Assembly: GCA_964587315.1 (NCBI GenBank) | Contig: CAZPLW010000001.1 | Location: 55,374-119,373, forward strand | From: an uncultured Lysobacter sp. | GTDB lineage: Bacteria > Pseudomonadota > Gammaproteobacteria > Burkholderiales > Usitatibacteraceae | DNA: 64,000 nt | Direction: 5' to 3' | In this document: in pieces, positions 11,492 to 56,707 of the stretch | Layout of the letters: each line of letters starts with the position of its first letter | Numbering within the stretch: position 1 is the stretch's first letter | The notes under the pieces: generated by a model | What the model saw: only the letters and a program-made list of their open reading frames with translations | Told to the model about the DNA's origin: nothing | The model's database searches: none | Program-made: the position numbers and the translations under genes

Positions 11492-11506
11492 ACGCGGAGG
11501 ATCCCC

Positions 11507-11902
11507 ATGGCCTTGGACCTGCAGAAGGAAACGCTGCTGACGACGCTGGGCATCGAGGTGGTGGAGGCGACGAAGGACCGCGTCGTCGCCCGCATGCCGG
11601 TGGGGCCCCGCGTGCACCAGCCCTTCGGCTTGCTGCACGGCGGCGCCTCGCTCTCGCTCGCCGAGACGGTGGTGTCGATCGGCGCCTGGCACAACATCGA
11701 TCGCGAGAAGGAGTTCGCCGTGGGGATCGAGATCAACGCGAACCACGTGCGCGCCGTGCGCGACGGCGCCGTCACCGCGACCGCCACGCCCATCCACGTG
11801 GGCCGCCGCACGCAGGTGTGGGAGGCCCGGCTCGTGGACGACGACGGCAAGCTCGTCTGCATCTGCCGCTGCACGCTGGGCACCATGCCCCTCTCCCCCT
11901 GA
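11507..11902 (+). CDS. PaaI/YbdB family hotdog-fold thioesterase
   Basis: LGIEVVEATKDRVVARMPV..HQPFGLLHGGASLSLAETV..NANHVRAV..ATPIHVGRRTQVWEARL matches the PaaI thioesterase pattern. Confidence 0.85.
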   Translation: MALDLQKETLLTTLGIEVVEATKDRVVARMPVGPRVHQPFGLLHGGASLSLAETVVSIGAWHNIDREKEFAVGIEINANHVRAVRDGAVTATATPIHVGRRTQVWEARLVDDDGKLVCICRCTLGTMPLSP

Positions 11903-12014
11903 AGGGGACGCACGCCTTCAGCGCCTCTGAAGGGGACGGAGCGGTTTTCACAACAGTGTGTTGCGGAAATCCCTCCGTCCCCTTCACCTCGCGTGAAGGC
12001 GTGCGTCCCCTTCA
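11900..12014. repeat. Nested-palindrome intergenic element, copy 2
   Basis: Same A-B-A' architecture. Its first A unit begins with the thioesterase TGA stop codon. It ends 6 bp from the convergent stop at 12020. Confidence 0.9.
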
Positions 12015-12019
12015 TTCCT

Positions 12020-13669: not shown

Positions 13670-13757
13670 GGGGACTCCCGGCGTCGGCAGGTGCCCGTAG
13701 GATGCGGCGGCCGACCCGTCCGGATGTTTCCGTTTGTCGCCACCAGTGACGGGTCGA

Positions 13758-13909
13758 TTGAAGGGGACGCACGCCTTCAAATCGGGTGAAGGGGACGGAG
13801 ACCCTCCAAAGGGGACGCAAACATTCACGTCACCTGAATGTGTCTGTCCCCTTTATGGGTCGAAAGCCTCCGTCCCCTTCAGCGCCAGTGAAGGCGTGCG
13901 TCCCCTTCA
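13758..13909. repeat. Nested-palindrome intergenic element, copy 3 (variant with an extra inner palindrome)
   Basis: A .. B-left .. AAAGGGGACGCAAACATTCA-N7-TGAATGTGTCTGTCCCCTTT .. B-right .. A'. It ends 6 bp from the tamB stop. Confidence 0.9.
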
Positions 13910-13914
13910 GGGGG

Positions 13915-17847: not shown

Positions 17848-17850
17848 GGG

Positions 17851-32433: not shown

Positions 32434-34365
32434 CTAGGGCGTGTACCAGATCGGCGAGGTGTACGCGCGCTCCGTGATCGTCATGCGCGTGCCCGGCAAC
32501 GGCTTGATGTTGAATCGCTTCGCGTCGTAGGCCGTCCAGCGCGGCGTCGGGATCTCGATCACGCGCACGTAGTAGAACGCGCGCTGCTGCGGGTCGAACG
32601 CCGGGTCCTTCCACACGGTGCTCAGCTCCGTCGCGCCGATGGAATTGGTCCACGTGGCGTTCGCCACGTCCACGGTGCTGCCGACGGAAGCGCGGGCGCG
32701 GCCGTCCGCGTCGATCTTGCGCCCGCCCGAGACGGCCACGTCGTAGATGCGCTCCTGCGTCCTGCCGTCCTTGTCGAGCCAGCCCTTGATCACCTGGACG
32801 CGGTCGATGTTCGCGCCGATCGGGTCCTTGAGCGCGGCCACGAGGAAGGTGGGCGACTTGCCCGCCGGGGCCTTCGCGAGGTCACCGCCCATCGGCACGC
32901 CCTTGGCGTAGCCGAGCGTGGCGGGCTGGCGATGGGTCGCATCGGCCGGCCCGAAGTCCCAGCCGCCGAAGAAGCGCACGATCATGCGCGGGCCGGTGGT
33001 GGCGTAGGTCTCGCGGCGCTTCATCGCGTCGAAGATCGCCTCGCGCGTGTTCTCGGTGGCCCACACGGCCGCGTAGCCGGAGGCGCCCACTTCCCAGTCC
33101 ATGACCTTCACGCCGGTCTTCGCGTTGTCGAAGAAGGTCTTCGTCAGGCGCTCGGGGCTCGGCTCCTGCGGGGCCGTCTTGCCGAAGAAGTTCTCCTCCT
33201 CGACGGCCACGAGGCCCGTGTGCGCGTCGGTGCTGCCGATGAGGCCGAACTTGTACGGGTTCGCGCCGAACTTCGCCTCGAGGGCGAGGCCGTTGCGGTA
33301 GGCCGAGCGGGCGTACTCGAGCGGGAGCATGTCCTTGCTCTTGGCCGCGCTGCCGTCGAGGTTGCCCTTGTCCCACAGCTCGTAGTCGGCGAACTCGTCG
33401 GTGGTCGACATGAAGGGATGCGACTCGCCGGTGCCCTTGGTCTGGGTGACCTCGTACAGCGGCTCCCAGCGCGCGCGCGTGTCGATGTACTTGCGGTCGA
33501 TGGGCTTGCCGAAGGCCTCGACCATCGGGAACATGCGGCCGTTGCTCAGGTTGCCGTTGTGGGCGATGGCGAGCACCTCGGTGCCGGTCTTCTGCTCCGT
33601 GGCCGCCATCCACTTCCAGAGGTTCTCCGGATTGTCGTTGCCGAGCGGCGGCAGCGTGGTGAACGGCTCGACGAGGCTCGCCTGCGCGCCGTTGCCGCGA
33701 AAGATCACGTTGCGGTGCAGGTTGTTGCCCTCGGTGATGGAGGTCCACTCTTAGCCGATGAAGACGGTGAAGCGGCCCGGGTCGTTGAATGCCTCGGCCG
33801 CCTTGATGGTCTCCTGCCAGGCGTTGCGGTAGGTGCTGGTTCCCGGGACCGGGAACCCCTTGGGCAGCCGGTTGTTGCTGAAGCTCACGATGATGTCGAC
33901 CGCCGCTTCCGCGCCCTGGCCGCCCTTGATCTGGTCGTACCACTTGCGCCCCTGAGGCGTCGCGAGCAGCTCCGGGTCGCCGCTCATGAGCTGCGGGAAG
34001 AAGCCGAAGCCGTCGGAGTGGTCGGCGACCACGAGGAAGTCGAGCGGGCGCGCGAGCTTCACCGACTGGCCGGTCGAGGAGACGACTTCCTCGCCGCGCG
34101 CGAACCGGTAGGCTTCCCGCGGCCCGAGCCGCGCGCCGAAGGCGCCGGCGTCCAGCGAGAACGACGTGTGCAGGTGCGTGTCCCCGAAAAGGGGCCGCGT
34201 CGGATAGCTGCGGCCGGCGTAGGGCGAATAGCCCGGCTTGCTGCCGTGCACGCGCTCGAGCTGCGCCTTCTCGGCGCCGCCGGCGTCGCCTTGCGCGAAG
34301 GCGGCGGACATGCCGCCCGCGAGCAGGGCGAGGCCCACGGCCGTGACGATCTTTCTGGTTTTCAT
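32434..34365 (-). pseudogene. DUF3604 domain protein interrupted by one in-frame TAA (33751-33753)
   Basis: The two ORFs (33751..34365 and 32434..33750) are in the same frame: ..GRFTVFIG-TAA-EWTSITEGNNLHRNVIFRGN... Signal peptide, and GDTHLHTSFSLDAG (PHP-like metal site) near the N-terminus. Confidence 0.8.
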
Positions 34366-34967
34366 GGTGCTGACCTCGATGAGAGAGCCGGGGGAGAGAG
34401 GCGATCGACGAGCGCGGCGATCTCGCGCACGCGTTCCGGTTCGCCGTAGAAGCGGATGAGGCCCCGTTCGCGGGCCGAGCGGGGGGTGAGCGTTCCGTCG
34501 ACGAGCCCGGCGACCACGGGCCGGTCCGTCACGACCACGACGTCGCCCGGAACGGGACCGGTCACGTGGACGGCCATGGCGAGCCCCGCGCCGGCGGGCT
34601 CGAACCGCGCCCAGAGCATCGGCCCGACCAGGACGACGGTGAATGCGGGGACGGCGCCCCTGTCCACGTGGGCGCCCGCGAGGTCTCGGAAGAGACCGAG
34701 CTGGCCGGCGGTGTCGCGATACGCGGCGAGGGCGCGAAGCGCCTCGGGACGCTCGTCCGGCTCCGCCGCCGGCTCGTTCCGGGCGATCACGCCTTCGAGC
34801 TGCGCCATCCAGACGGCCGTGTGGACGTACAGGGCCTTCGGATAGGCGAGGTTGAGCGCGGAGCGGTTCAGGTCCACCGCACCGTGAAAGCCGCAGGCCC
34901 CGGCGGGCCACGCCGCGGCCATGAGCAGGGTCGCCGCGACGGCGTTGCGCCAGTTCCCGGCGCTCAA
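34362..34967 (-). CDS. Hypothetical exported protein (TTG start; alternative ATG at 34922)
   Basis: The stop overlaps the DUF3604 start (ATGA). The N-terminal part is hydrophobic (AVAATLLMAAAWPAGAC). No family recognised. Confidence 0.5.
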   Translation of the reverse strand: MSAGNWRNAVAATLLMAAAWPAGACGFHGAVDLNRSALNLAYPKALYVHTAVWMAQLEGVIARNEPAAEPDERPEALRALAAYRDTAGQLGLFRDLAGAHVDRGAVPAFTVVLVGPMLWARFEPAGAGLAMAVHVTGPVPGDVVVVTDRPVVAGLVDGTLTPRSARERGLIRFYGEPERVREIAALVDRLSPPALSSRSAP

Positions 34968-35005: not shown

Positions 35006-35821
35006 CTACCAGTGGAAGACCGCCGCGATCGCCGGCCCGTTGAAGGTCATGCTCTCGATCTTCTTGCCGGACTTCATGTCGTAGTCGAGATAGCGCCACG
35101 CGGCCACGACGTCGCCCCACTTGAACGAGTAGCCGATGCCGCCCATCGCCTGCCACGTGAGGTCCGATTCGCCGGTGCCGATGTCGACGTACCAGGGCAC
35201 GAACCACTTGCGCTCCTCGCCCAGGGCGAAGCGTCCCTTCGCGCCGACGATCGCATCCCAGTTGGAGATCTTCGCTTCCGACGTGCCCGCGCGGCTGCCC
35301 ACGGGAACCGAGGCGACGTTGCCGGTGATCTCGTACCCGAACGTCTGCTTCAGGTCGAAGAGTCGCGTGCCGCCGATGAGGTCGACCTTCATGGCCGGAT
35401 CGGAGGCGATGCGCCAGGTGCCCGCGAGTGTCCACGCCCAGCCCTTCAGGTCGTAGCTCACGTTGGCGTCGGCGCCGGCGGGAATGGGCGTGCCCCCGAG
35501 CGTGAAGTCGCGGAACCCGCTCTTGGTGTTGCCCAGGTCCATGTAGACGACGTCGGTGTACATGCCCCAGCGGCCGTTGCTCGCCTCGAGGTTCCCCATG
35601 AAAGTCATCTTCAGGCTGTCGAGGATCTTGCTCGAGTCCACCGTGCTGCTGCTTCCGCCGGAGCCGGCAGGGAAAGTCGTGGTCCCGCCGATGTCCGGCA
35701 GGTAGGCGTAGATCGAGCCCTGCCATTTCCAGGTGTCCGCGACCTGCGCGCGGGCGTCGGCGGACGACAGGGTGGCGAGGGCGCAGAGCGCCGCGGCCGT
35801 GAGCTTCATCGGTCTGTTCAT
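35006..35821 (-). CDS. Outer-membrane beta-barrel protein (unknown family)
   Basis: Signal peptide MNRPMKLTAAALCALATLSSADA, alternating beta pattern and a C-terminal ..GPAIAAVFHW aromatic terminus. Confidence 0.7.
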   Translation of the reverse strand: MNRPMKLTAAALCALATLSSADARAQVADTWKWQGSIYAYLPDIGGTTTFPAGSGGSSSTVDSSKILDSLKMTFMGNLEASNGRWGMYTDVVYMDLGNTKSGFRDFTLGGTPIPAGADANVSYDLKGWAWTLAGTWRIASDPAMKVDLIGGTRLFDLKQTFGYEITGNVASVPVGSRAGTSEAKISNWDAIVGAKGRFALGEERKWFVPWYVDIGTGESDLTWQAMGGIGYSFKWGDVVAAWRYLDYDMKSGKKIESMTFNGPAIAAVFHW

Positions 35822-35859: not shown

Positions 35860-36324
35860 TTACTTGATGGTGTAGCCCTTGCCCTCGAGGCACGCGGCGC
35901 GCGCCTTCTGGTAGGCCTGCTGGCCCGCGCTCTGCTGCTGCGAGGCCTGCTGTTGCTGCTGCTGCGAAGCCGCCTGGTTCTGCTTGCGGCTCGCGCTGCG
36001 GGCCACGACCGCGCCGGCCGCGGCGCCGGAACTCGCGTCGCCGCCGACCACCTCGCCCACGACCGCACCCTTCGCCGCGCCGCGCACGCCGGCGCCCGGC
36101 GTCGTGCCGGTCGCCGTCGTCGGGGGCTTGGCGGCCTGCGGGGGCGGCGGCGGATTGGCCGGGTCGTACTTCGACTGCTCGACCGCCCACGTGTGGCAGG
36201 CGCCCTCGTCCTTCTTCTGCTGGTCGGACGTCTGGCCCTTGGCGGGGTACACGAACTGCTGCGCGACGGCGCTGGCGGCGAAGGCCGTCGCGACGATCGC
36301 GGCAAGAAGCGCGGGGGTTCTCAT
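35860..36324 (-). CDS. Small secreted glycine-zipper / Gln-rich protein
   Basis: AAGGAG RBS before MRTPALL and a signal peptide. GAGVRGAAKGAVVGEVVGGDASSGAAAGAVVA is a Gly-zipper, a poly-Q tract follows, and paired Cys residues flank it (GACHTW .. ACLEGKGYTIK). Confidence 0.6.
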   Translation of the reverse strand: MRTPALLAAIVATAFAASAVAQQFVYPAKGQTSDQQKKDEGACHTWAVEQSKYDPANPPPPPQAAKPPTTATGTTPGAGVRGAAKGAVVGEVVGGDASSGAAAGAVVARSASRKQNQAASQQQQQQASQQQSAGQQAYQKARAACLEGKGYTIK

Positions 36325-36335
36325 CGATTTCTCCT

Positions 36336-37304
36336 TCATTGCGGGGCCTTGGCCCATGTCTTGTCGGGATTGAACAGCTTCATCGCGGCCGCGAGCCGGG
36401 CGGTATCGCTGCCCAGGTCCTTCTCGAAGACCACGCCGTCGTGGTTCACGACGAAGGTCTTCACGCCGGAATTGCGGTAGCTGGCGGGCCAGGCGACGAT
36501 CGCGAAGCCGCCGAAGAGCTTGCCCTTCACGAGGTAGTCGTAGGCGCCGCCCGGGGCGTCCTTGCCCTGCGCGGTGAGGATGCGGAAGTAGTAGCCGTGA
36601 TAGGGCATGGGCTTCGCGTCCTTCTTCCCGGCGCCGTACCCTTCGCTCACGGCCTTCGCGGCCAGCGGGCCCAGCGGGCTCGCGGGCTCGCCTGCCTTCG
36701 TCTCCCAGTACAGCCCGTCCTTCTTGCCCGGCGTCGAGCGGATGCGCGCCGCGTAGTGGTGCAGGCCGTCGCCGTCGGCGTCCCGCGCGGCGTACTCGCG
36801 CTGCGCGTCCACGGCGGCCAGCAGGGTCTGGATCGTGTCGAGCTCGTTGCGGCCCACGCGGCGGTTCATGACTTCCTCGCGCCCCGCGTCCGCGTCGAAC
36901 GCCCACTTGTCGCCCTTCTTCACGAGCGGCGCCGGAAAGGGCCAGTCGTCGCCGATGACCAGGATCGCCTTGGCGTCGCCCTCCTTCGCGAGCCGGTTCT
37001 TCGCGTCGTAGCCCGCGAGGAATTTCTTCCAGTCCGACGCGTCCGCGACGCGGTCGCCGGTGAAGAGCCAGCTGCGGGACTTCGGGCCGATCACCGCGAC
37101 CATGCCCTCCACGTCGCTCGCGCGCACCGCCTCGACGAGGGCCTTCACGGCCTCCTCGGGCGTCGCGAACGACTTCTGGACCGCGGCCTTGGGCGCGGCT
37201 TTCGCCGCCGGGGCATTCTTCTGGTCCTGCGCGAGGGCGCCGCCGCCGGCGATCGCGATCGCGGCTCCGGCCAGGACGCCGGCCATCCATCTCGTCGTAT
37301 TCAT
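36336..37304 (-). CDS. DUF2950 domain protein (copy A)
   Basis: Signal peptide, then FATPEEAVKALVEAV..VGRNELDTIQTLLAAVDAQREYA..GLYWETKAGEPASPLGPL..YHGYYFRILTAQG..FAIVAWPASYRNSGVKTFVVNHDGVVFEKDLG. Its start shares one nt with the DUF3300 stop (TGATG). Confidence 0.85.
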   Translation of the reverse strand: MNTTRWMAGVLAGAAIAIAGGGALAQDQKNAPAAKAAPKAAVQKSFATPEEAVKALVEAVRASDVEGMVAVIGPKSRSWLFTGDRVADASDWKKFLAGYDAKNRLAKEGDAKAILVIGDDWPFPAPLVKKGDKWAFDADAGREEVMNRRVGRNELDTIQTLLAAVDAQREYAARDADGDGLHHYAARIRSTPGKKDGLYWETKAGEPASPLGPLAAKAVSEGYGAGKKDAKPMPYHGYYFRILTAQGKDAPGGAYDYLVKGKLFGGFAIVAWPASYRNSGVKTFVVNHDGVVFEKDLGSDTARLAAAMKLFNPDKTWAKAPQ

Positions 37305-38521
37305 CAGCGTCTCCCTCCGCCACTTCGACCACCGCCGCCACCGGCACCGCGGCTCGAGGCGCCCCGGCTGCTGGCCGCCTGCGTGGATGCGCCCGAACCC
37401 GCGCCGGAGAATCCGCCGCTGGAACCGGAGCGCGAACTGGCCGCGGACGTCGAGGCCGACGGCGAACGCGAAGCCCCGGCCCCGGCATCGCGGGAACCCG
37501 CGCCCGCACCCGTCGTGCTGGCCGACGGCGAACGGCCGGCTCCCGCATCGCGAGCACCGGCACCCGCCGCCTGCGTCGAGGCGCCGGCCTGTTCCCGCCC
37601 GCGGTACTGGTCGCGGGCCTGCGCCGACTGGGCGTTCGCGCCCTTGCCGTACTGCGAGGCCGCCGCCTGGTTGCCGTAGGGAACGCCCTTGCGGGATGCC
37701 GTGTTGTGCTGGAAGTTGTTGTTCTGGATGTTGGTCTTGTTGAAGTTGTTGTAGTTGTTCACGTTCACGTTCACGTTGTTGCCGCCCCAGTTGCAGTTGC
37801 CCCAGATGGCGGCGCCTACCACCACGCCGGTGGCGAACGCGAGGCCGGGCGGATAAACGTACGCGGGCGGATACATCGAATAGGGCGGGTACGGATACGG
37901 CCACGTGCCGTAGACCGTCGCCGGGTTGTAGGTCGGGACGTAGACCACCTCCGGCTTCGGGGACTCGATGATGTAGACGGTCTGGCTGCCTTGCTGCTCC
38001 GTCTTCACCGTCTGCTCCGGCGTCGACTTGAGGTTGCCCGCCTTCTGCGCCTTGGCGCGCAGCGACTGGACCGTCGTCATCACGGCCTTCTGGTCCGCGA
38101 GGAAGGCATCGCCCAGCTTCTGCGTCCAGGTGAGGTTCTCGTTCATGTGCCCGAGCACCTTGGGCACGGCGGTGAGCGCCTTCACGGCCGGGTCCCACGC
38201 CTGCTTCTGCATCGCGTCCTCGAGCGCCTTGTCCTTCACGCCCGGGTTGGCCTTCGACCAGCGCGCCGCCTCGACGACCTCGAGCGGGTAGGTGGAGGCC
38301 ATGAGGATCTGCGCGACGAGCGCATCGGGATACAGCGCGATCGGCGCGAGGAGCTGGTCGAGCTCCTGCTGCGGGATGGCGGCGACCGGCGCGGCGGTGC
38401 CCGGTGGCGGCGCGGCGGCGCCCGGCGGCGGTGTGGCGGGTTGCTGGCCCCACGCCGGGAAGGCGCCCATGAGGAGCGCCACGGCCAGGGTCCGGTATCG
38501 GGAGGGGGTCGATTTCGTCAT
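37304..38521 (-). CDS. DUF3300 domain protein (copy A) with a Gly/Ser/Arg-rich C-terminal tail
   Basis: Signal peptide, then QQELDQLLAPIALYPDALVAQILMASTYPLEVVEAARW..KQAWDPAVKALTAVP, which is the DUF3300 core. The last ~110 aa are low complexity. Confidence 0.85.
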   Translation of the reverse strand: MTKSTPSRYRTLAVALLMGAFPAWGQQPATPPPGAAAPPPGTAAPVAAIPQQELDQLLAPIALYPDALVAQILMASTYPLEVVEAARWSKANPGVKDKALEDAMQKQAWDPAVKALTAVPKVLGHMNENLTWTQKLGDAFLADQKAVMTTVQSLRAKAQKAGNLKSTPEQTVKTEQQGSQTVYIIESPKPEVVYVPTYNPATVYGTWPYPYPPYSMYPPAYVYPPGLAFATGVVVGAAIWGNCNWGGNNVNVNVNNYNNFNKTNIQNNNFQHNTASRKGVPYGNQAAASQYGKGANAQSAQARDQYRGREQAGASTQAAGAGARDAGAGRSPSASTTGAGAGSRDAGAGASRSPSASTSAASSRSGSSGGFSGAGSGASTQAASSRGASSRGAGGGGGRSGGGRR

Positions 38522-38717
38522 CTTCGCTTCCTGGCCGGCTCGGGACATCGCCGGAAAAGAGACTGCGATCGGACTTGCGGCGGGAACATCCCGGCGCGGG
38601 CATCGCGCCGTCGAAATCATCTCATGGCGCCGGTGGCGGAAAAGGCGCGCCGCCCCGCGAAAGCGAGACGGCGCAAGTCACCGGGGTACCGGGGAACGGC
38701 GATCGCGCCGATCGGGG

Positions 38718-39281
38718 TCAGAAGCGGAAATCCACCCCGACGAGGTAGCTGTCGACCTCGATCTTGTCGTTCTTCATCCACTCGGCGAACAGGCCGACGT
38801 TCTTCGAGAAGAGATACCGCGCGCCGATGCCGTAGGTGGCACCGGTCTGCTTGTCCGACTCGCCGGCCGTGAAGTTCGCCGTGTTGGCGTTGGCCTTGAT
38901 CTCGGACTCCTCGATGCCGATTCGCCCATAGATCTCGAAGTTCTGGGCAACCGGCGCGATGCCGACGGCCGAGATGCCGAAGGACTTGGCCTTGGCCGAG
39001 CCGCTCACGTCGATGTTGCCCGAGCGGCCGCTGAACGTGTACTTGCCCAGGTCGTAGTAGCCGACCTCGACCGCGAAGTTCGGATGGAACCGGTAACCGC
39101 CGCGGATGGTGTAGGTCTTGTCGCTGTCGTCGATGGTCGCGTCCTGCAGGCCGGTGATGTCCTGGCCGGTCTTGCCGAGGCTGCCGATGCCCGCGCCGAA
39201 TCCGACGTACCAGCTCTGGGCGAACGCGGGGGCGGACACGAGGCCCGCGGCCAATGCGACGGCGGTGATGATCTTCTTCAT
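38718..39281 (-). CDS. Small outer-membrane beta-barrel protein (OmpA-N / OMP_b-brl type)
   Basis: AAGGAG RBS and signal peptide MKKIITAVALAAGLVSAPAFA. QSWYVGFGAGIG.. and terminal YLVGVDFRF are typical of an 8-stranded barrel. Confidence 0.75.
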   Translation of the reverse strand: MKKIITAVALAAGLVSAPAFAQSWYVGFGAGIGSLGKTGQDITGLQDATIDDSDKTYTIRGGYRFHPNFAVEVGYYDLGKYTFSGRSGNIDVSGSAKAKSFGISAVGIAPVAQNFEIYGRIGIEESEIKANANTANFTAGESDKQTGATYGIGARYLFSKNVGLFAEWMKNDKIEVDSYLVGVDFRF

Positions 39282-39344: not shown

Positions 39345-39995
39345 CTACTTGGCCTTCGGCGCTTCAGTCTTGGGCGCGGCGGCCTTCGGGGCGGGGGCCT
39401 TCGCGGCCGGCTCGACGCTGAGCGCGAGGGCTTCCGTGTACTTCACCTCGACCTGGTCGCCCTTCTTCACCACCTTGAACTGCTCGGGATTGCGCACGTC
39501 GAGCGTCACGACCTTGCCCTTCGGGCCCTTGAGCGTGATGGTCTTCTTGGCGGAATCGACGTCGGTCACCTCGGCGATGGCGGTGACCTGCCGGGCGCCT
39601 GCGACGGCGGGCTTCTCGCCCGGCTTCGCCTTCGCCGCTTCTTCGCGGACCGTCGGCTCGCCGGCCGCGACCTTGGTCTTCTTCAGCTCGAGCGAGAGGG
39701 CCTCGACGTAGCGAACGACGACGGAGTCGCCGACCTTGATCTGGTCGAAGTTCTTCACATCGAGACCGGCGACGATGTCGCTCGTCTCGCCGTTGGGGCG
39801 CTTGAGCGACACGGTGCGGGTCGCCTTGTCGATCGCGACCACCAGGGCCGTGGCCTCGACGGCGTTGACGGCCGTGGCCTTGCCGGGTTCGCTCTTCAAC
39901 GCGGAACCGCCGGTGACGCCGGGTTGCTGGGCAATGGCCGCCGTGGCGAAAAGCGCGGCGGCAATGGCGATCGAGAGGCGGGTCTGGGTCTTCAT
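39345..39995 (-). CDS. Secreted protein made of two tandem homologous ~60-aa domains, Lys/Ala/Pro tail
   Basis: Signal peptide. Domain 1 is VVAIDKATRTVSLKRPNGETSDIVAGLDVKNFDQIKVGDSVVVRYVEALSLEL. Domain 2 is IAEVTDVDSAKKTITLKGPKGKVVTLDVRNPEQFKVVKKGDQVEVKYTEALALSV. Confidence 0.65.
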   Translation of the reverse strand: MKTQTRLSIAIAAALFATAAIAQQPGVTGGSALKSEPGKATAVNAVEATALVVAIDKATRTVSLKRPNGETSDIVAGLDVKNFDQIKVGDSVVVRYVEALSLELKKTKVAAGEPTVREEAAKAKPGEKPAVAGARQVTAIAEVTDVDSAKKTITLKGPKGKVVTLDVRNPEQFKVVKKGDQVEVKYTEALALSVEPAAKAPAPKAAAPKTEAPKAK

Positions 39996-41016: not shown

Positions 41017-41565
41017 ATGCGATTTCGTCGCGGAATTCCCGCAGCCCTCGCCGCCGCCGCGGCGCTTGTGCCCGTTGCCGCCCACGCATCCTTCCTCTCG
41101 GGCGACGCGCTCGACGCCATGGCGAACGTCATCGCCTGGATCGTGCTCATCTTCGTGCCGGTCGGCGGCATCGTCCTCTTCTGGATCGTGCACGTGATGC
41201 CCGAGAAGATCGCGGAGAAAAGCCACCATCCCCAGCAGCAGGCGATCAAGACGCTTTGCCTGCTCTCGCTGGTGTTCGGCGGGCTCCTGTGGCCGATCGC
41301 GTGGCTCTGGGCGTACACGCGGCCGGTCGCCTACCGGATGGCGTACGGCACCGACAAGCACGAGGAGTACTACGAGAAGATGGCCGAACGGGCTCGCCGC
41401 GGGGAACTCGACGCCGGCGAGATCGCGCACCTGAAGTCGGAGATCGACTACATCGAGTCGCGGGGCAACCTCAGCGCGCACCTGCGGGAGCTGCGCGAGA
41501 CCCTGGCGCACGCTAAGCCGGCGACGCCCGTACCGGCGGCCGCACCCAAGGAAGGAGCCGCCTAG
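41017..41565 (+). CDS. DUF3302 (YiaW-like) membrane protein
   Basis: IVLIFVPVGGIVLFWIVHVMPEKIAEKSHHPQQQAIKTLCLLSLVFGGLLWPIAWLWAY matches the YiaW pattern. It is immediately followed by a YiaV-like HlyD gene. Confidence 0.75.
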   Translation: MRFRRGIPAALAAAAALVPVAAHASFLSGDALDAMANVIAWIVLIFVPVGGIVLFWIVHVMPEKIAEKSHHPQQQAIKTLCLLSLVFGGLLWPIAWLWAYTRPVAYRMAYGTDKHEEYYEKMAERARRGELDAGEIAHLKSEIDYIESRGNLSAHLRELRETLAHAKPATPVPAAAPKEGAA

Positions 41566-42786
41566 ATGGACGCCCTCCTCCTTGCCATCTACGCGTTCTT
41601 CGTCTGGTTCGTCTTCATCAAGAAGAAGTGGCTGCCGTGGAACACCACGTCGCAGGTGATCGTGGTCATCATCCCGGTCGTCGCCCTCACGATCCTGGTC
41701 CTGCTCCTGAACGTCTTCGCGCCGACCTCGGCCGACGTGCGCGTCGTGAAGTACGTCGTGAACATCGTGCCGCAGGTGCGCGGGCGCGTGACCGAGGTGC
41801 CGGTCGAGCCCAACCGCCCGGTGAAGAAGGGCGACGTGCTGTTCCGGATCGATCCCACGCCCTACCAGCTCAACGTGCGCGCGCTCGAGGCGCAGCTCGC
41901 CAATGCCGTGGGCAGCTCCAAGGAGCTCGAGGAGCAGCTCGTCGCCGCCACCGGCAAGGTGACGGAGGCCCGAGGCGCCATCTCCCAGGCTTCCGCCCGC
42001 GTCCGGGAGGTATCGGCCCGCGCGGAACTCGCCCGGCTTCGCGTGACGCAGAACCGGGAACTGGTCGCCTCCGGCGCCGGCAACCAGTTCGACCTCGAGC
42101 AGGCCGAGGCCAACCTGAAGGAGTTGGAAGGCACCCTCGACAACGCGCGCGCCGCCGAGGCGCAGGCCCGCGCCGCCGAGGTACAGGCCATGGCCGGCGA
42201 GCGCCAGGTGAAGCAGCGCCTGGGCGCGCAGGCGAACGGCGAGTACGCGCAGGTCGCGCAGGTGCGCGCGCAACTCGAGAACGCGAAGTGGGAGCTTTCG
42301 CAGACGACCGTCGTCGCCCCCGCCAACGGCTACGCCATCAACGTCCAGCTGCGGCCCGGCGCGATGACGGCGGCCTTCCCCGTCACGCCCGCGCTCACCT
42401 TCGTCGAGGAGGAGTTCCAGATCATCGCCCTCTTCGGACAGAACGAGCTGCACCAGGTAATGCCCGGCAACCGCGCCGAGATCTCGCTCAACACCCATCC
42501 GGGCGACATCATCAAGGCGACGGTGGACTCGATCGTCTGGGCGCAGGGCCAGGGCCAGGTGCCTTTGTCCACGATCCTGCCGACGACGGGCGTGCAGGCG
42601 CCCCCGCCCAACCGTTTCCCGGTGAAGCTCACCGTGGACCCGGCGCAGAAGGACCTCTTCCTCGCCGCCGGCGCGGCCGGCAACGCGGCGATCTACACCG
42701 ACGGGTTCAAGGCGATCCACGTGATCCGCATGGTGTTCCTGCGCGTCGGCGCCAAGGTCAACTACCTCGTGCTCAAGCTGCACTGA
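41566..42786 (+). CDS. HlyD family membrane-fusion (periplasmic adaptor) protein, YiaV-like
   Basis: N-terminal TM segment, VRGRVTEVPVEPNRPVKKGDVLFRIDPTPYQ lipoyl-like motif, a long coiled coil and TVVAPANGYAINVQLRPG. Confidence 0.88.
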   Translation: MDALLLAIYAFFVWFVFIKKKWLPWNTTSQVIVVIIPVVALTILVLLLNVFAPTSADVRVVKYVVNIVPQVRGRVTEVPVEPNRPVKKGDVLFRIDPTPYQLNVRALEAQLANAVGSSKELEEQLVAATGKVTEARGAISQASARVREVSARAELARLRVTQNRELVASGAGNQFDLEQAEANLKELEGTLDNARAAEAQARAAEVQAMAGERQVKQRLGAQANGEYAQVAQVRAQLENAKWELSQTTVVAPANGYAINVQLRPGAMTAAFPVTPALTFVEEEFQIIALFGQNELHQVMPGNRAEISLNTHPGDIIKATVDSIVWAQGQGQVPLSTILPTTGVQAPPPNRFPVKLTVDPAQKDLFLAAGAAGNAAIYTDGFKAIHVIRMVFLRVGAKVNYLVLKLH

Positions 42787-44234
42787 TGCGACTGCCCGAC
42801 CGCCCCTCTCGAAGGGCCCCGCGCCTCGCGGCGATGGCGGTCTGCCTTGCCATTGCCGGCTGCGTGCTCAATCCGCCTCCCGACAAGGAGGCGCTCATGG
42901 CCGATGCGCTGCCGACGGTGAAGGCGCCCGGGGCGTGGATATCGCCGGGCGGCGGCACCGGCGCCGTCCAGGACGACTGGCTCGCGACCTTCTCGGACGC
43001 GCGGCTCGCGGCGCTCGTGACGGAGGCGCTCGCCAACAACCTCGACCTCCGCGTCGCCGCGGCGCGCATGGAGCGGGCCGCCGCCTACGCGAAGCAGGCC
43101 GGCGCGACTCTCTACCCGCAGGTGAACCTGCTCGGCACCGGCAGCTTCACCGGCTCCGATTCGGGCAGCGCCTTCAACACGTTCGGCCTCTTCGTCAACT
43201 GGGAGCTGGATCTCTGGGGCCGCGTGCGATCGCAGGCCGGGGCCGGATCGGCGCAGTACGAGGCCGCGGCCAGGGACACCGAATTCGCGCGCCAGTCGAT
43301 CGCCGCGCTCACCGCCAAGAGCTGGTTCCTCGCCATCGAGGCGCGCCGCCAGCGCGCGATCGCCCAGGAGATGGTGGCGGCCGCGGAGAGGATCGTGTCG
43401 CTCGCCGGCGAACGCGCCCGCGTCGGCCGGGGCGACGAATACGACGTTCGCGTGGCCACGGCGGGACTGCAGGCCTACCGCGATGCCGTCCTGCAGTTCC
43501 AGTTGGCCGAGTCGCAGGCCCTGCGCGCGATCGAGACGATCGTCGGACGGTATCCGGCCGCGACGCTCGAGCTCGCGCCGCAGTTCCCTCCCTTCCCGGG
43601 CGCCGTGCCCGCGGGTCTTCCCTCGGAGATCCTCGAGCGCCGCCTCGACGTCGCCGCCGCGGAGCGGCGCGTGGCTTCGGCCTTCTACCTCGTGGGCGAA
43701 GCCCAGGCCGCGCGACTGCCGCGCATCGCGCTCACGGCCAGCGTGAGCAGCATCACGAGCGACCTCGTCTTCCTCAAGGACCGCGACAATCCCGCCTGGA
43801 GCGCCGGCGGCAACCTCGTGATGCCCCTGTTCGCCGGAGGCGCCCTGAAGGCGCAGGTGGAGGTGCGCACCGCCGAGCAGAAGGCGGCGGTGGCGGACTA
43901 TGGCCGCATCGGCGCTCGCGCCTTCGCGGAAGTCGAGAACGCGCTCTCGGCGACCTTCAACCTCGCCCAGCGCGTTCCGGTGCTCGAATCGTCCGTCGCC
44001 GAGAACGAGCGGGCCCTCGAGCTCGCGCAGGTGCGCTACCGCGTCGGCTCGGCCGACCAGCGCGCCGTCCAGCAGCAGCTGCTCGCGACGTCCGCGGCGC
44101 GCGCGGCGCTCACGCGCGCCTTGAGCGAGCGCCTCGTCCAGCGCGTGAACCTGCACCTGGCGCTCGGCGGCAGCTTCGCCCCGACCGCCGTCGCGGCGGC
44201 CTCCGCGCCGGCGTCCAACCCCCCGCCGCAATAG
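42786..44234 (+). CDS. Efflux outer-membrane factor lipoprotein, NodT family
   Basis: Lipobox LAIAGC, then WLATFSDARLAALVTEALANNLDLRVAAARMERA and a duplicated TolC-like repeat. The start overlaps the HlyD stop. Confidence 0.9.
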   Translation: MRLPDRPSRRAPRLAAMAVCLAIAGCVLNPPPDKEALMADALPTVKAPGAWISPGGGTGAVQDDWLATFSDARLAALVTEALANNLDLRVAAARMERAAAYAKQAGATLYPQVNLLGTGSFTGSDSGSAFNTFGLFVNWELDLWGRVRSQAGAGSAQYEAAARDTEFARQSIAALTAKSWFLAIEARRQRAIAQEMVAAAERIVSLAGERARVGRGDEYDVRVATAGLQAYRDAVLQFQLAESQALRAIETIVGRYPAATLELAPQFPPFPGAVPAGLPSEILERRLDVAAAERRVASAFYLVGEAQAARLPRIALTASVSSITSDLVFLKDRDNPAWSAGGNLVMPLFAGGALKAQVEVRTAEQKAAVADYGRIGARAFAEVENALSATFNLAQRVPVLESSVAENERALELAQVRYRVGSADQRAVQQQLLATSAARAALTRALSERLVQRVNLHLALGGSFAPTAVAAASAPASNPPPQ

Positions 44235-52338: not shown

Positions 52339-53487
52339 CTAGCGCCAGGCGCTCCCCATGATGAGGTAGACCGCCTTGTCCTCGGGGCCGCGCGCCACGT
52401 CGATGCCCACGCGCATCCCGAGCGCCCGCGTGAGCAGGTAGCGGAACCCCACGCCGACGGTCGTGCGCGAGGGCTCGTCGCGCAGCGCCGAGTTCGAACC
52501 GGCCGCCCGGCCCGCGCCCGCGAAGCCCACGAGCGACCAGCGCCCGTCGAGGTTCCAGCGCCCCTCGATCTCGGCGAGGGCGACGCGGTCGCCCTGGTAG
52601 CGCATCGCCGGGATGCCGCGCAGCTCGATGAAGGGACGCGCGTAGAACGGCGCGTCGCCGTCGACGGCTTGCACGTCGGCGCGAAGGCCCACGACGAGCG
52701 AATCGCCGACCGGGTGGAAGCCCTGCAGCGCGAGGCGCGAGCGGGTGAACTCGTAGTCGCTGCCGAGCGAGGGCGCGAACCGGATCGCCTCGAAGTAGGC
52801 GCGAAGCCCGGCATTGGGCGTAAAGATGTTGTCGCGCCCGTCGTACTCCACCACCGGGCCCAGGCCCGACATCGCGGCGTCGAGGTCGGCCCGCGGCGGC
52901 TCCGGGGAGCCGTCCCGCGCGAACTTCACCTTCACGTTCGAGCCCATGTAGCGAAGGCCCGCCCACCACTCCGTATCGCCGAAGCGCCGGCGCACGTCCG
53001 CCACGGCGAGCGAGCCATCGAGGTTCACGTCGCGCCCGTCCGCGGTGGCGCCGGTGCCGATGCCGGGCGTGCCGTACCAGGCGAGGTTGATCGAGCCGCG
53101 CGCCAATCCGGCGAGGTAGCGCCAGCGCCGGCCCTCGCTGAAGCCCAGGTGGCCGATGCCGCCGCCCTTCGTGCCGTTCTCCGTGCCGAACGCGGCGCCG
53201 GCCGTGATGTCGGGCGGCTCGAACGTGCGTACGCCCGCGGGACTCGGCGGGGCATCCGGGTTTCGATGGAAGAAGAGAAGCGCCGCGCCACCGCCGTAGC
53301 CGATCGCGGGCTCGGTGATGACGATGGGGACCGGCAGGAAGCCCTTGCGCTCGAGGAGCCAGCGGCTGGCGTCCAGGCGGCCATCGACCGGATCGCGGAA
53401 GATCTCGTCGTCCCAGGGGGCGGCGGACGAGGCGGCGGGAGCCAGCGCGGTGAGCGCGGCGAGCCCCGCCAGGCGAAGCGACTTCAA
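52339..53487 (-). CDS. Omp85 (BamA/TamA)-superfamily outer-membrane barrel lacking obvious POTRA domains
   Basis: TTG start overlapping the upstream stop (TTGA) and a signal peptide. FIELRGIPAMRYQGDRVALAEIEGRW..GVGFRYLLTRALGMRVGIDVARGPED resembles the surface-antigen barrel C-terminus. Confidence 0.65.
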   Translation of the reverse strand: MKSLRLAGLAALTALAPAASSAAPWDDEIFRDPVDGRLDASRWLLERKGFLPVPIVITEPAIGYGGGAALLFFHRNPDAPPSPAGVRTFEPPDITAGAAFGTENGTKGGGIGHLGFSEGRRWRYLAGLARGSINLAWYGTPGIGTGATADGRDVNLDGSLAVADVRRRFGDTEWWAGLRYMGSNVKVKFARDGSPEPPRADLDAAMSGLGPVVEYDGRDNIFTPNAGLRAYFEAIRFAPSLGSDYEFTRSRLALQGFHPVGDSLVVGLRADVQAVDGDAPFYARPFIELRGIPAMRYQGDRVALAEIEGRWNLDGRWSLVGFAGAGRAAGSNSALRDEPSRTTVGVGFRYLLTRALGMRVGIDVARGPEDKAVYLIMGSAWR

Positions 53488-54047
53488 TTCAGCTCGGTGT
53501 CCTTGTAGTACTTGGTGCCCTTGGCGGTGAGCTCGGCGGCGAGCCCGTCGTCGGTGAGCTGGTAGAGCCAGACGCCCGGCGAGATGGACATCGCGCCGGC
53601 ATAGACCTCCGAGCCCTTGCCGCTCACCTGGGCCGAGGCGGTGGCCTGCGCGCCCAGTTCCCAGCCGGCGTTGATGAACTTGTCCAGGTCGGACTGCTTC
53701 TCGAAGACCCAGACCAGACGGAACTTCTTCACGCCGACGCCCAGGCCCGCCTGGACCTCGACCATCTTCATGAAGGTCTCCTTCTTCGCCTTGCGGTTCA
53801 CGGCGAGGCCGGACCCCGAGCCGCCGCCCGCGAAGAGGATCTTCATGCCGAAATTGCTGAAGACCGCGTAGCCGGCGGAGCGCTCGATGGCGTCCTTCGC
53901 GTGGGGCTGCGACTTGTAGAGGCGCTGGAGCGTGTTCTCCGTGACGTCGCGCACGTCCTGGCGCTTCTCTTCCACCGAGGCCGCGAAGGCCGGCCCGCCC
54001 AGCGCGAGCACGGCGGCGAGGCAAAGCGATGCGATGCGGGGGTTCAT
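53484..54047 (-). CDS. Secreted SYLF (DUF500/Ysc84-like) domain protein (tentative)
   Basis: Signal peptide, then SAGYAVFSNFGMKILFAGGGSGSGLAV..QAGLGVGVKKFRLVWVF..WELGAQATASAQ..GVWLYQLTDDGLAAELTAKGTKYY follows the SYLF pattern as I recall it. ATGA overlap with DUF2950. Confidence 0.5.
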   Translation of the reverse strand: MNPRIASLCLAAVLALGGPAFAASVEEKRQDVRDVTENTLQRLYKSQPHAKDAIERSAGYAVFSNFGMKILFAGGGSGSGLAVNRKAKKETFMKMVEVQAGLGVGVKKFRLVWVFEKQSDLDKFINAGWELGAQATASAQVSGKGSEVYAGAMSISPGVWLYQLTDDGLAAELTAKGTKYYKDTELN

Positions 54048-55042
54048 TGGGGAGCCTTTTTCCAGCGCTTGTCGGGATCGAAGCGCGTCAACTTTCCGGC
54101 GACGGCCGCCGTGTCCTTGCCCAGATCCGCCTCGTAGACCACGCCGTCGTGGTTCACGATGAAGGACATCACGCCCGAGACGCCGTACTTGGCCGGGTAC
54201 GCGACGACCGCGAAGCCGCCGAAGAGCATGCCGTTCACCAGGTAATCGTACTTGCCGCCCGGCGCGAAGCCGCCCTGGCCCGTGAGGATGCGGAAGTAGT
54301 ACCCGTTGTAGGGTGCGGGCTGGCCACTGGCCAGCTTCCCCTTGCCGTAGCCCTTTTCCGCCGCCCGGGCCACCAGGGGGCCGAGCGGGCTCTGCGGCTC
54401 GCCGGACTTCGTCTCCCAGTACAGGCCGTCCTTCTTGCCGGAGGTCGAAAGCAGGCGCGCGGCGTAATTGCGCACGCCGTTGCCGTCCGAATCGTTGGCC
54501 GCGTACTCGCGCTGCGCGTCCACGATGGCGAGCAGCGTCTGGATGGTGTCGAGCTCGTTGCGGCCCACGCGGCGGTTGGTGATCTCCTCGCGGCCGGCCT
54601 CGGCATCGAAGGCCCAGGCGCTGCCGCGCTTCACGATCGGCGCGGCGAACGGGTAGTCGTCCTTGCCGACGACGAGGGTCGCCTTGGCGTCGCCGTCCTT
54701 CACGAGCGCGTTCTTCTCGTCGTAGGCGGCGGCGAAGCGCTTCCAGGCGTTGGCGTCGGCCACCTTGTCGCCGGTGAAGATCCAGCTGCGCGAGGCGGGG
54801 CCCACGACACCGACGAGCGCGTCCACGTCGGCGGCCTTCACCGCATCCACGAGGGCCTTGGCGGCCTCCTCGGGCGTGGCGAAGGTGCGCTGCTTGGCCG
54901 GGGCTTTCTTCGGCGCCGCGGCGGCCGGCTTGGCGGCGGCCTTGGCTTCGGGGGCCGCCTGCGCGTGGGCGCCGGCGGACAGGGTCAGGGTGAACGCCGC
55001 GGCGAGCGAGGCGACGATCGGGGTCAGCTTGTTCATGTTCAT
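54044..55042 (-). CDS. DUF2950 domain protein (copy B)
   Basis: Paralog of 36336..37304 (FATPEEAAKALVDAV..VGRNELDTIQTLLAIVDAQREYA..GLYWETKSGEPQSPLGPL..YNGYYFRILTGQG..SFIVNHDGVVYEADLG). Confidence 0.85.
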   Translation of the reverse strand: MNMNKLTPIVASLAAAFTLTLSAGAHAQAAPEAKAAAKPAAAAPKKAPAKQRTFATPEEAAKALVDAVKAADVDALVGVVGPASRSWIFTGDKVADANAWKRFAAAYDEKNALVKDGDAKATLVVGKDDYPFAAPIVKRGSAWAFDAEAGREEITNRRVGRNELDTIQTLLAIVDAQREYAANDSDGNGVRNYAARLLSTSGKKDGLYWETKSGEPQSPLGPLVARAAEKGYGKGKLASGQPAPYNGYYFRILTGQGGFAPGGKYDYLVNGMLFGGFAVVAYPAKYGVSGVMSFIVNHDGVVYEADLGKDTAAVAGKLTRFDPDKRWKKAPQ

Positions 55043-55066
55043 GGTCTCCGTGTCCTGGGGTATGGG

Positions 55067-56359
55067 TCAGCCGCGACGTCCGCCGCCACGCCCACCGCCG
55101 CCACCACCGGCACCGCCGCCACCGCCCATCGAGGACCGGCTCGAACTGCCGCGCGAACTCGCGTCGCGCGTCGAGGCGCCGGACCCGGACCCGGAGAATC
55201 CGCCGCCGCCACCGCCCTGGCGGGTTGAGGCCCCACCTCCGCCCATGTCGCGGCTGCCGGTGCTCGCCGACCCGCGCGAGCCCATGCCCTGCGTGTTGGC
55301 CTGGGCGGCGCGGTTGCCCGCGTCGCGACCGCCGGCGTCGCGGCTGCCCGCGCTGGCGCGATCGGCCTGCGAGACGCGGTCGTTCAGCTGGCCCTTGTCC
55401 ATGGATTTCAACTCCCCGCGTCCCTGCTCGGCGTGACCCCGGAACTGCTCGCGAGACTGCGCGGCCTTCGCGTCGCCGCCGCGGTTGTACTTCTGCGCGG
55501 TGGCGTTGTCGCGGTAGCTCACGCCCTTGCGGTGGTCGGCGTTGTGCTGGAAGTTGTTGTTCTGGAGGTTCGTCCGGTTGAAGTTGTTGTAGTTGTTCCG
55601 GTTGATGTTGATCTCGTTGCCGCCCCAGTTGCAGCCGCCCCAGATGGCCGCGCCCACGAAGACGCCGGTGGCGAACGCGACGCCCGGCGCGTAGACGTAT
55701 CCGGGCGGATACATGTAGTACGGCGGATACGAGTACCACCAGGAACCGTAGACGACCGACGGGTTGTACGTCGGCACGTAGACCGTCTCGGGCTTGGCGG
55801 ACTCGATGATGTAGACCGTCTTGTTCTCGACGGTCTCCGTCTTCACGTTCTGCTCGGGCGTCGTCTTCAGGTTGCCCGCGGCCTGGGCCTTGGCGCGAAG
55901 CGACTGGACCGTCGCCATCACCGGCTTCTGGTCGACGAGAAAGGCGTCGCCCAGCTTCTGCGTCCAGGAGAGGTTCTCGTTCATCTGCTTGAGCACCTGG
56001 GGCACGGCGGTGAGCGCCTTCACGGCCGGGTCCCACGCCTGCTTCTGCATCGCGTCCTCGAGCGCCTTGTCCTTCACGCCCGGGTTGGCCTTCGACCAGC
56101 GCGCCGCCTCGACGACCTCGAGCGGGTAGGTGGAGGCCATGAGGATCTGGGCGATGAGCGCGTCCGGATAGAGCGCGATCGGCGCGAGGAGCTGGTCGAG
56201 CTCCTGCTGGCTGACGGCGGCGGCGGGTGCGGCAGCGGGTGTCGTGGCCGGCGCGGCAGCCGGGGCGGGGGCCGGAGCCTGGCCCTGGACGACGGGCATC
56301 ACGAGGCAGGCGGAAACGGCCAAAGCGAGCGCGCGGGAAGAGCGAGCGGTAAGGGACAT
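55067..56359 (-). CDS. DUF3300 domain protein (copy B) with a Gly/Ser/Arg-rich tail
   Basis: Paralog of 37304..38521. The N-terminal domain is nearly identical (QQELDQLLAPIALYPDALIAQILMASTYPLEVVEAARW...). Start taken at MSLTARSS. Confidence 0.85.
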   Translation of the reverse strand: MSLTARSSRALALAVSACLVMPVVQGQAPAPAPAAAPATTPAAAPAAAVSQQELDQLLAPIALYPDALIAQILMASTYPLEVVEAARWSKANPGVKDKALEDAMQKQAWDPAVKALTAVPQVLKQMNENLSWTQKLGDAFLVDQKPVMATVQSLRAKAQAAGNLKTTPEQNVKTETVENKTVYIIESAKPETVYVPTYNPSVVYGSWWYSYPPYYMYPPGYVYAPGVAFATGVFVGAAIWGGCNWGGNEININRNNYNNFNRTNLQNNNFQHNADHRKGVSYRDNATAQKYNRGGDAKAAQSREQFRGHAEQGRGELKSMDKGQLNDRVSQADRASAGSRDAGGRDAGNRAAQANTQGMGSRGSASTGSRDMGGGGASTRQGGGGGGFSGSGSGASTRDASSRGSSSRSSMGGGGGAGGGGGGRGGGRRG

Positions 56360-56434: not shown

Positions 56435-56707
56435 TCAGTCGCGGATGCGCGCGCCCTTGATCGTGCCCTTGGGCAGGGTCGCTTCCTTCCAGAAGGCGCC
56501 CGCGGGACCGCGCAGGGCCATGTACTTGATGTTGGCGACCGGGAAGATGAGCAGCCCCCCGTCGGAATCGATGACGAGGTGCTTCGCCGCCAGGAAATCG
56601 GCCACCTTCATCTGCTTGGCGGCCGTGTTGGCGGCCTGTTCGGGAAAGTCGAAGGAGAGCTTGCTGCCGTCGACGAAATGGATGGTGAGGATGCGGTCGT
56701 TCTGCAC
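56435..56707 (-). CDS. Small hypothetical protein (90 aa, GTG start)
   Basis: GGAG RBS 8 nt upstream of the GTG and coding-like composition. It lies 75 bp upstream of DUF3300 copy B on the same strand. Confidence 0.5.

Follow-up and report, generated by a model that had tools for sequence, protein, structure and literature searches.

Two old copies of a widespread secreted DUF3300–DUF2950 gene pair, a putative periplasmic unit with interchangeable envelope accessories

The stretch of 64,000 nucleotides (nt) analysed here (hereafter the window, meaning the whole stretch), from contig CAZPLW010000001.1 of an uncultured Lysobacter sp., carries on its minus strand two groups of genes, modules A and B, in each of which a DUF3300 gene and a DUF2950 gene lie near genes for a small secreted protein and an outer-membrane (OM) beta-barrel. 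The question raised by this locus is whether such a make-up defines one envelope system or whether a smaller part of it is the conserved unit. We find a widespread secreted DUF3300 plus DUF2950 unit to be present in the window in two copies that stem from an old duplication and, judging from sequence, we hold with moderate confidence that both proteins form a periplasmic two-protein complex, with small envelope proteins often co-expressed as interchangeable accessories. The co-localisation of the pair was already published in 2015, in a study that described both genes as 'universally co-localized', equipped with signal peptides, nodule-induced and of no known function (Seshadri et al. 2015, PMC4653623); thus the window is a real and not unusual instance of a gene pair noted before.

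Domain assignments were made by a Pfam profile search of the open reading frames (ORFs) of the window, with NCBIfam run as a second library. In module A a DUF3300 gene (DUF3300-A, 405 amino acids (aa), 37304..38521, minus strand; PF11737, 2e-83) is followed by a DUF2950 gene (DUF2950-A, 322 aa, 36336..37304, minus strand; PF11453, 6e-113), and in module B the corresponding genes are DUF3300-B (430 aa from the ATG at 56359, 55067..56359, minus strand; PF11737, 4e-86) and DUF2950-B (332 aa, 54044..55042, minus strand; PF11453, 1e-112). The DUF3300 profile is matched over positions 1-222/227 with 279.8 bits (A) and 288.5 bits (B) against a gathering cut-off of 25, and the DUF2950 profile over positions 1-273/274 with 377 bits (A) and 376 bits (B) against a cut-off of 20.2, which bears out the family assignments proposed for both modules in an earlier sequence-only reading of this DNA; NCBIfam returned nothing further for either protein of the window. 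All ORFs listed in that reading are present on the minus strand, the GC content at third codon positions (GC3) is 88-95% in every claimed frame of both modules, and every component shows a Sec-type N-terminus in a simple test of n-, h- and c-regions, in agreement with the signal peptides that had been assigned throughout. In public records DUF3300-B is called as a 410-aa protein (P0205), against 430 aa for the ORF used here, a difference of 20 residues; we prefer the longer start because the shorter protein would be without a signal peptide. In module A the stop codon of DUF3300 and the start codon of DUF2950 share one nucleotide in the sequence TGATG (TGA 37306-37304, ATG 37304-37302), as had been pointed out, and in module B the two genes are separated by a 24-nt gap with a GGAGA Shine-Dalgarno sequence.

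The two copies are 69% identical in DUF3300 and 65% identical in DUF2950, and the paralogy is confined to these two genes: the accessory genes, barrels included, are unrelated between the modules. Both operons occur in the same form in the nearest relative (81% identity; ENA contig NODE_424), hence the duplication is old and gives no independent evidence.

In order to see what is conserved beyond this window, a genome collection was scanned, giving 80 loci from Betaproteobacteria, Deltaproteobacteria, Nitrospirota, NC10 and Binatia that are the base of most of the counts below; many of them are related metagenome-assembled genomes and phylogenetically non-independent, and p-values are indicative only. 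DUF3300 neighbours were called by tblastn and iterated hidden Markov models, and 72 loci had enough upstream sequence. In 70 of these 72 the gene immediately before DUF2950, in the same orientation, is DUF3300; one of the two exceptions retains a remnant. The gap between the genes has a median of 36 nt and does not exceed 101 nt in 61 of 68 cases, and stop and start overlap in 2/68 loci only, so that the one-nucleotide overlap of module A is a local detail; the tight coupling of the pair deduced from it stands. Modules A and B both show the adjacency, common strand and export signals of the conserved DUF3300→DUF2950 operon. De novo clustering of the flanking ORFs yielded no further family in more than 28 loci, the most frequent being generic response regulators. 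Each family comprises at least about 8000 clusters at 90% identity, a genome scan gave more than 560 matches, and the same pair is annotated in replicons of Sinorhizobium, Ralstonia and Klebsiella. In Sinorhizobium (L175, S. meliloti pB) it is found between an arginine deiminase operon and genes for ornithine decarboxylase and a putrescine antiporter, and in Ralstonia (L176, p56D2) among the stress genes ftsH, hsp20 and HPF.

The window pair resembles the published one in both families, in the upstream position of DUF3300, in the two signal peptides and in the lack of a known function, and differs from it in being present as two old paralogous copies, each in a longer operon with envelope accessory genes; Seshadri et al. 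2015 reported no informative neighbourhood (PMC4653623). The pair had been presented as one without a published function, and what has been published is the co-localisation and not a function.

Further support for a joint role of both proteins comes from a natural fusion. A chimeric DUF3300+DUF2950 query retrieved 13 two-domain clusters, most of which were rejected as gene-call artefacts, either with the DUF2950 signal peptide still inside or with frame-shifted Arg-rich sequence; in P0241, P0243 and P0246-P0252 a frameshift or lost stop in the GC-rich Gly/Arg tail joins two genes. P0244 and P0245 are genuine-looking in-frame DUF3300–DUF2950 fusions of 696 and 673 aa (L172 4800-6890, L173 650-2671) that share 70% identity across the two domains and are each one continuous ORF, with no signal peptide at the junction in any frame; of the two signal peptides of the pair only that of DUF3300 is kept. 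At least 13 contigs, produced by different assemblers and in part from short reads, contain this type of fusion, and a phosphoglycerate-mutase-like gene follows in both L172 and L173. Free DUF2950 always carries its own export signal; since the fused DUF2950 lacks one and is placed behind DUF3300, the DUF3300 tail should be periplasmic and its hydrophobic segment should not be a membrane span, in agreement with the weak hydrophobicity of the equivalent segment in YacH of Escherichia coli. The adjacency in 70 of 72 loci together with the signal-less fusion argues for DUF3300 and DUF2950 being one periplasmic unit.

DUF3300-A starts with a signal peptide and a helical domain; beta hairpins follow, then a Pro/Tyr-rich stretch, a conserved hydrophobic Gly-rich segment, an Asn-rich motif and, last, a disordered tail. 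The Asn-rich motif, NVNINVNNYNNFN, is conserved, and the alignment shows R-x-G-V-P-Y as a motif besides it. The tail consists of Gly, Ser and Arg with a net charge of +12 and the end GGGRR in DUF3300-A, with a net charge of +13 and the end GGGRRG in DUF3300-B; it is net positive in 60/60 homologues (median +14), and the last two residues are RR in 44 and GR in 12 of 68 sequences. Most tails are of the Gly/Ser/Arg type, those of Klebsiella and E. coli being Gln/Arg-rich. We had considered the Gly/Arg tail as a specific docking peptide for DUF2950 and dropped this candidate, as the DUF2950 partner in Klebsiella has a Gln/Arg-rich, non-Gly tail. Being polycationic and ending in Arg thus appears to be the sole property of the tail that survives across pairs.

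The structural model of DUF2950 (mean predicted local distance difference test score, pLDDT, 74) consists of an NTF2-like alpha+beta domain (about residues 45-137, pLDDT about 95), a long helix and a four-stranded sheet. The long helix packed on a four-stranded antiparallel sheet is shared with type IV pilins and type II pseudopilins such as ComP and PilX, from which the protein differs by an NTF2-like domain that precedes the helix and by an ordinary Sec signal, MNTTRWMAGVLAGAAIAIAGGGALA/QDQ (the slash marking the cleavage site); neither a prepilin leader (G/F-x-x-x-E) nor a hydrophobic N-terminal helix is present, so that DUF2950 is not classed as a type IV pilin. The N-terminal part resembles the alpha+beta cone of NTF2/SnoaL-like domains, with Foldseek matches to 3gwr, TerC and ketosteroid isomerases, and is shorter than typical members; no sequence similarity to them was found and no catalytic residues were identified. 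Sequence and profile searches of the PDB gave no match for either family. The loop GKKDGLYW…SPLGP of DUF2950 is strongly conserved and modelled with low confidence, as may be expected for a putative binding site that orders on contact.

A link to a studied organism is given by E. coli yacH (b0117), which is a DUF3300 gene with no DUF2950 gene beside it in E. coli K-12 (L084, 1908-3761). In Klebsiella (L174, NZ_OP378649.1, 5319-7744) DUF3300 and DUF2950 are located together between acnB and lpdA, which is the locus of the lone yacH in E. coli K-12; E. coli has thus lost the DUF2950 partner. The Klebsiella record is labelled a plasmid, carries aceEF-lpdA-acnB-speED and looks chromosomal. YacH shares with the DUF3300 proteins of the window the core with the Gly-rich segment, the NINIDVNNFN and R-x-G-V-P-Y motifs and a polycationic tail (+18), and differs from them by an Asp/His-rich insert and by a tail of Gln/Arg-rich helical SPEQRQ-type repeats that is unrelated in sequence to the Gly/Ser/Arg tail. 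Its highest 19-residue Kyte-Doolittle value after residue 60 is 1.25 and is located elsewhere than the equivalent of the hydrophobic segment, which scores lower. The only phenotypes of yacH are its control by CpxR and Rob, with a marked drop of expression when rob is mutated, and an improved survival of the deletion strain under protamine (PMC9600279, PMC7537768); the predicted location of YacH has been tabulated as 'Extracellular' (PMC9600279).

The surroundings of the pair in module A extend beyond what had been described. DUF2950-A is followed after an 11-nt gap with an AAGGAG Shine-Dalgarno sequence by the gene of a secreted Gly-zipper/poly-Q protein (154 aa, Gly/Ala-rich, 35860..36324, minus strand) without Pfam match, in particular to PF13488, PF13441 or PF13436 at cut-off, that has conserved YPAKGQ..C..WA and C.EG.GYT motifs at its N- and C-terminus, respectively. 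It is of the same broad kind as the Gly-zipper_Omp, YMGG and OmpA or SlyB/17-kDa-antigen type proteins, from which it differs by these Cys-containing end motifs; two members of its family (L066, L059) pass the Pfam cut-off (27.0 and 26.6 vs 25 bits) and that of L051 is just under it (24.3). Next come a 271-aa OM beta-barrel (35006..35821, minus strand), absent from the gene list of the sequence-only reading, whose family has no Pfam model of its own and which ends in an aromatic beta-signal (...AVFHW), one family member matching OMP_b-brl at 2.8e-8; a 201-aa ORF with a lipoprotein-like signal (…AAAWPAGAC; 34362..34967, minus strand; no Pfam match, GC3 88%); and, its start overlapping the stop of this ORF (ATGA) and thus translationally coupled, the last gene of the operon, for a secreted DUF3604 protein (32434..34365, minus strand; PF12228). 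This gene is broken by an in-frame TAA at 33753-33751 (FIG-stop-EWTS); with Tyr put in its place the match to DUF3604 is full-length (2.5e-245). Either the gene has decayed to a pseudogene or the assembly is wrong at this codon, selenocysteine having been rejected because the codon is TAA. Operon A thus runs DUF3300–DUF2950–Gly-zipper protein–271-aa barrel–lipoprotein-like ORF–DUF3604 and continues downstream past 35860, where it had been thought to end.

The 8-stranded OmpA/OmpX-type beta-barrel upstream (38718..39281, minus strand), which had been counted as a member of the same module, is sound as a barrel (PF13505 OMP_b-brl, 1.2e-21, 78.1 bits against a cut-off of 28.7, plus OmpA_membrane, PF01389; signal peptide; C-terminus ...VDFRF). 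It is separated from DUF3300-A by a 196-nt spacer with a terminator-like hairpin (38640..38675, minus strand) of a 13-bp GC-rich stem and a UUUC loop followed by CCUUUU; the 88-nt region folds with -44.6 kcal/mol (z -2.4). A terminator consensus scan did not pick up this hairpin, whose U-run is of 4 U only, and the consensus scans of both operons for sigma-70 promoters and terminators were uninformative. Because the spacer holds this GC hairpin and the UUUU run, the barrel probably forms a transcription unit apart from operon A, together with the gene of a 216-aa secreted protein (39345..39995, minus strand; two small beta-domain repeats, weak CusF-like match) with which it is probably co-transcribed. 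The genes described for module A are all at the stated positions. Two genes upstream of module A and on the opposite strand there is a DUF3302–HlyD-family–outer-membrane-factor cluster (41017-44234, plus strand), and DUF3302/HlyD genes stand beside the pair again in L001, L007, L009, L062 and L111. Farther away (13915-19611, minus strand), ORFs of 1310 and 586 aa are TamB/TamA-like in size and order in a by-eye reading of their translations.

In module B the second pair at 54044-56359 is accompanied, as had been proposed, by a small secreted protein and an OM barrel, of SYLF and Omp85 type by Pfam. The start of the SYLF/Ysc84-domain secreted protein (187 aa, 53484..54047, minus strand; PF04366, 28.2 bits vs cut-off 25.1) overlaps the DUF2950-B stop (ATGA), and its own stop overlaps the TTG start (TTGA) of the Omp85-superfamily barrel (382 aa, 52339..53487, minus strand; PF01103, 31.6 bits vs cut-off 24). 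The operon is therefore ordered DUF3300–DUF2950–SYLF–Omp85-like, with overlapping stops and starts downstream of DUF2950. The SYLF protein is of the same broad kind as SYLF lipoproteins such as BPSL1445, with a far lower score (63.9 vs 200 bits for the equivalog cut-off NF049970) and with no Cys at the predicted cleavage site and thus no lipobox. The Omp85-like match spans only PF01103 profile positions 114-185 and stays under the NCBIfam Omp85_fam cut-off (52.9 vs 200); no POTRA domain was detected in the 382-aa protein by Pfam, and a relative in L170 has a faint POTRA match. A GNAT gene follows 22 nt after the barrel gene. At the other end, 75 nt upstream of DUF3300-B, a cytoplasmic-looking 90-aa ORF (56435..56707, minus strand; no signal peptide, no Pfam match) is kept in the close relative L082, and its belonging to module B is uncertain.

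Small accessory families recur near the pair. Homologues of the Gly-zipper protein were found in 9/80 loci, on the strand of the pair in 9/9 and within 1.5 kb in 7 cases vs 1 at 3-10 kb (p 2e-4). The SYLF family occurs in 7/80 loci with 10 copies, 6 of them within 1.2 kb; 6 copies lie within 1.5 kb vs 4 at 3-10 kb (p 0.013), and all those tested pass the Pfam cut-off (27.7-114.7 bits to PF04366 for the homologues beside the pair). The 216-aa protein is another of these recurring families, its homologues lying close to the pair or to the 271-aa barrel in L039, L055, L058, L061, L062, L098, L111, L117, L137 and L165. Taken together, the three families seeded from the window are 6.3-fold denser within 1.5 kb than at 3-10 kb (p 1.8e-5), which upholds the recurrence of a small Gly-zipper or SYLF partner, and at least one accessory family is present within 1.5 kb in 21/80 loci and within 10 kb in 33/80. 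The accessory families of both modules are found around one pair in a distant soil contig (L111, DUF2950 46% identical), where positions 7316-19419 encode a kinase, a regulator, a 271-aa barrel, a patatin, the 216-aa, Gly-zipper and SYLF proteins, a helical protein, DUF3300, DUF2950, DUF3302 and HlyD; because this one run holds nearly all of them, it joins the families that in the window are split between modules A and B. The patatin of L111 is a patatin-like lipase, and LuxR-type two-component genes adjoin the pair in L111, L082, L170 and L171.

OM barrels do not behave in the same way. Five families were counted, namely OMP_b-brl, the MetA-pathway type, DUF2490, Omp85 and the 271-aa family; for the last a seven-sequence alignment was too divergent for the collection scan and a five-sequence version was used. 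Across the 80 loci barrels are found within 3 kb of the pair in 6/80, with a density of 2.35 per 100 kb near the pair vs 1.95 at 3-10 kb (1.2-fold, p 0.45), and a heuristic independent of families found OMP-like ORFs within 2.5 kb in 5/80. The 8-stranded family is present in 2/80 loci and there at a distance of over 6 kb, the Omp85-like family in 1/80 and not within 3 kb, and the 271-aa family in 7-9/80. In the reverse search, 80 metagenomic homologues of the 271-aa barrel had the pair within 10 kb at 3 loci, two of which are identical copies. The view of an OM barrel as a regular component thus fails in this broad set and is softened only by the close relatives within the Betaproteobacteria: in 5/6 of their Pfam-labelled loci the pair has a barrel of one family or another no more than two genes away. 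Barrels are thus a frequent local companion in this clade and not a general component.

On this basis we propose that DUF3300 and DUF2950 would act jointly in the periplasm as one complex, with the whole of DUF3300, tail included, on the periplasmic side. DUF3300 would provide a helical domain, a Gly-rich hydrophobic element that may touch the membrane leaflet or self-associate, and the disordered polycationic tail, and DUF2950 a cup-shaped NTF2-like domain and a pilin-like alpha/beta domain, likely the ligand- or partner-binding part. The tail might, speculatively, bind anionic envelope material such as lipopolysaccharide (LPS), phospholipid head groups or cell wall, and the complex might serve envelope maintenance under stress. 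The Gly-zipper, SYLF and OmpA-like proteins and DUF3313 lipoproteins would be interchangeable co-expressed accessories, drawn from a loose pool of envelope genes, and not fixed subunits, as would the OM barrels of this lineage.

Several points weigh against this proposal. The complex, its location and its ligand are drawn from sequence and models, and the DUF3300 model is poor (pLDDT 45) with no structural match. Foldseek gives DUF2950 weak matches throughout, led by minor type IV pilins and NTF2-like proteins (best E 0.02; 0.02-0.3 for the pilins). The hydrophobic segment of DUF3300 reaches 19-residue Kyte-Doolittle maxima of 1.28-1.83 in 32 homologues, borderline for a membrane span. Most of the fusions in the databases are artefacts, and in the genuinely fused lineage the tail is not clearly polycationic, so that it may be mainly a linker or docking peptide. 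As for the accessories, 47/80 loci (about 60%) have none of the families within 10 kb, and the higher enrichment obtained on adding DUF3313, OmpA_C, the 17-kDa antigen and a 160-aa helical protein (13.1 per 100 kb within 1.5 kb vs 1.8 at 3-10 kb, 7.3-fold) carries a post-hoc bias, the added families having been picked after viewing the loci.

The many loci devoid of accessory families would suit an explanation in which the neighbours are meaningless, that is, a self-contained pair that sits in regions rich in envelope genes and an accessory set due to shared ancestry and chance. The highly varied downstream genes, the metabolic or general stress function of the genes that border the pair in Sinorhizobium, Klebsiella and Ralstonia, and the non-independence of counts among related genomes point in the same direction; however, the density of Gly-zipper and SYLF genes drops sharply with distance in the very same loci, the Gly-zipper genes are without exception on the strand of the pair, and the same families appear in varied orders in Betaproteobacteria, Deltaproteobacteria, Nitrospirota and an unrelated soil contig, which leads us to regard chance alone as unlikely. 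At the opposite extreme stands a fixed four-part periplasm/OM system of DUF3300, DUF2950, a small secreted protein and an OM barrel, represented twice in the window. Both modules do have that make-up, the genes of module B are all linked by a short gap or by overlapping stops and starts, and the barrels of the close relatives fit it; nevertheless, the barrels of A and B are unrelated, that of 8 strands is behind a terminator-like hairpin, homologues of the 271-aa barrel seldom have the pair nearby, and across the broad set both the barrel families and the OMP heuristic find barrels at few loci, with a density flat with distance. A fixed system of this kind appears to us quite unlikely.

The other two alternatives concern the place of the proteins rather than that of the genes. 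DUF3300 could be a single-pass inner-membrane protein with a cytoplasmic Arg-rich tail and DUF2950 as its periplasmic partner, forming a signalling or anti-sigma-like device, as might be suggested by a segment hydrophobicity of up to 1.8 in some homologues, a strongly positive C-terminal tail that suits the positive-inside rule, the adjoining LuxR-type two-component genes and the annotation of many members as 'membrane protein YgcG' by the Joint Genome Institute. This topology would place the DUF2950 of the fusion in the cytoplasm, yet free DUF2950 is always exported; moreover, the YacH segment is too weakly hydrophobic to span and is followed by the Asp/His-rich insert, and some 24 residues separate the segment from the first basic one, so that we give such a device a very low probability. 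Export of the pair past the periplasm as a surface or matrix structure, by means of an amyloid-prone Asn-rich stretch and the pilin-like domain, is the least credible of the possibilities: the Asn-rich motif is indeed conserved, a pilin-like fold is predicted for DUF2950 and YacH has been listed as extracellular, but DUF2950 has neither prepilin leader nor hydrophobic N-terminal helix, neighbourhood clustering gave no consistently adjacent secretion-system genes, and the Asn-rich motif is a single short element and not a repeat array.

The periplasmic two-protein complex is thus the reading that we retain. A broader proposal, which we put forward only tentatively and consider rather doubtful in its full extent, is that the pair may be the core of a widespread, unrecognised envelope-homeostasis system of diderms. 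Its polycationic tail and its NTF2/pilin-like partner would bind anionic lipid or LPS, and Gly-zipper, SYLF, OmpA-like or barrel proteins, each replaceable by another, would help the complex to tune the OM, including its sensitivity to cationic peptides.

The window itself offers nothing unique beyond a tidy two-copy example. What is new here is that the pair alone is the conserved unit, that a natural fusion argues for a periplasmic topology, that an Arg-terminated polycationic tail is a conserved property, and that yacH occupies the locus of the Klebsiella pair, which opens the way to tractable models (Klebsiella, Sinorhizobium and Cupriavidus/Ralstonia) with a concrete hypothesis. The pair is found in rhizobia, Burkholderiales, Klebsiella and many uncultured lineages, and in the few available data sets it responds to envelope stress or symbiosis. 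A large uncharacterised family with no solved structure is thereby provided with testable properties.

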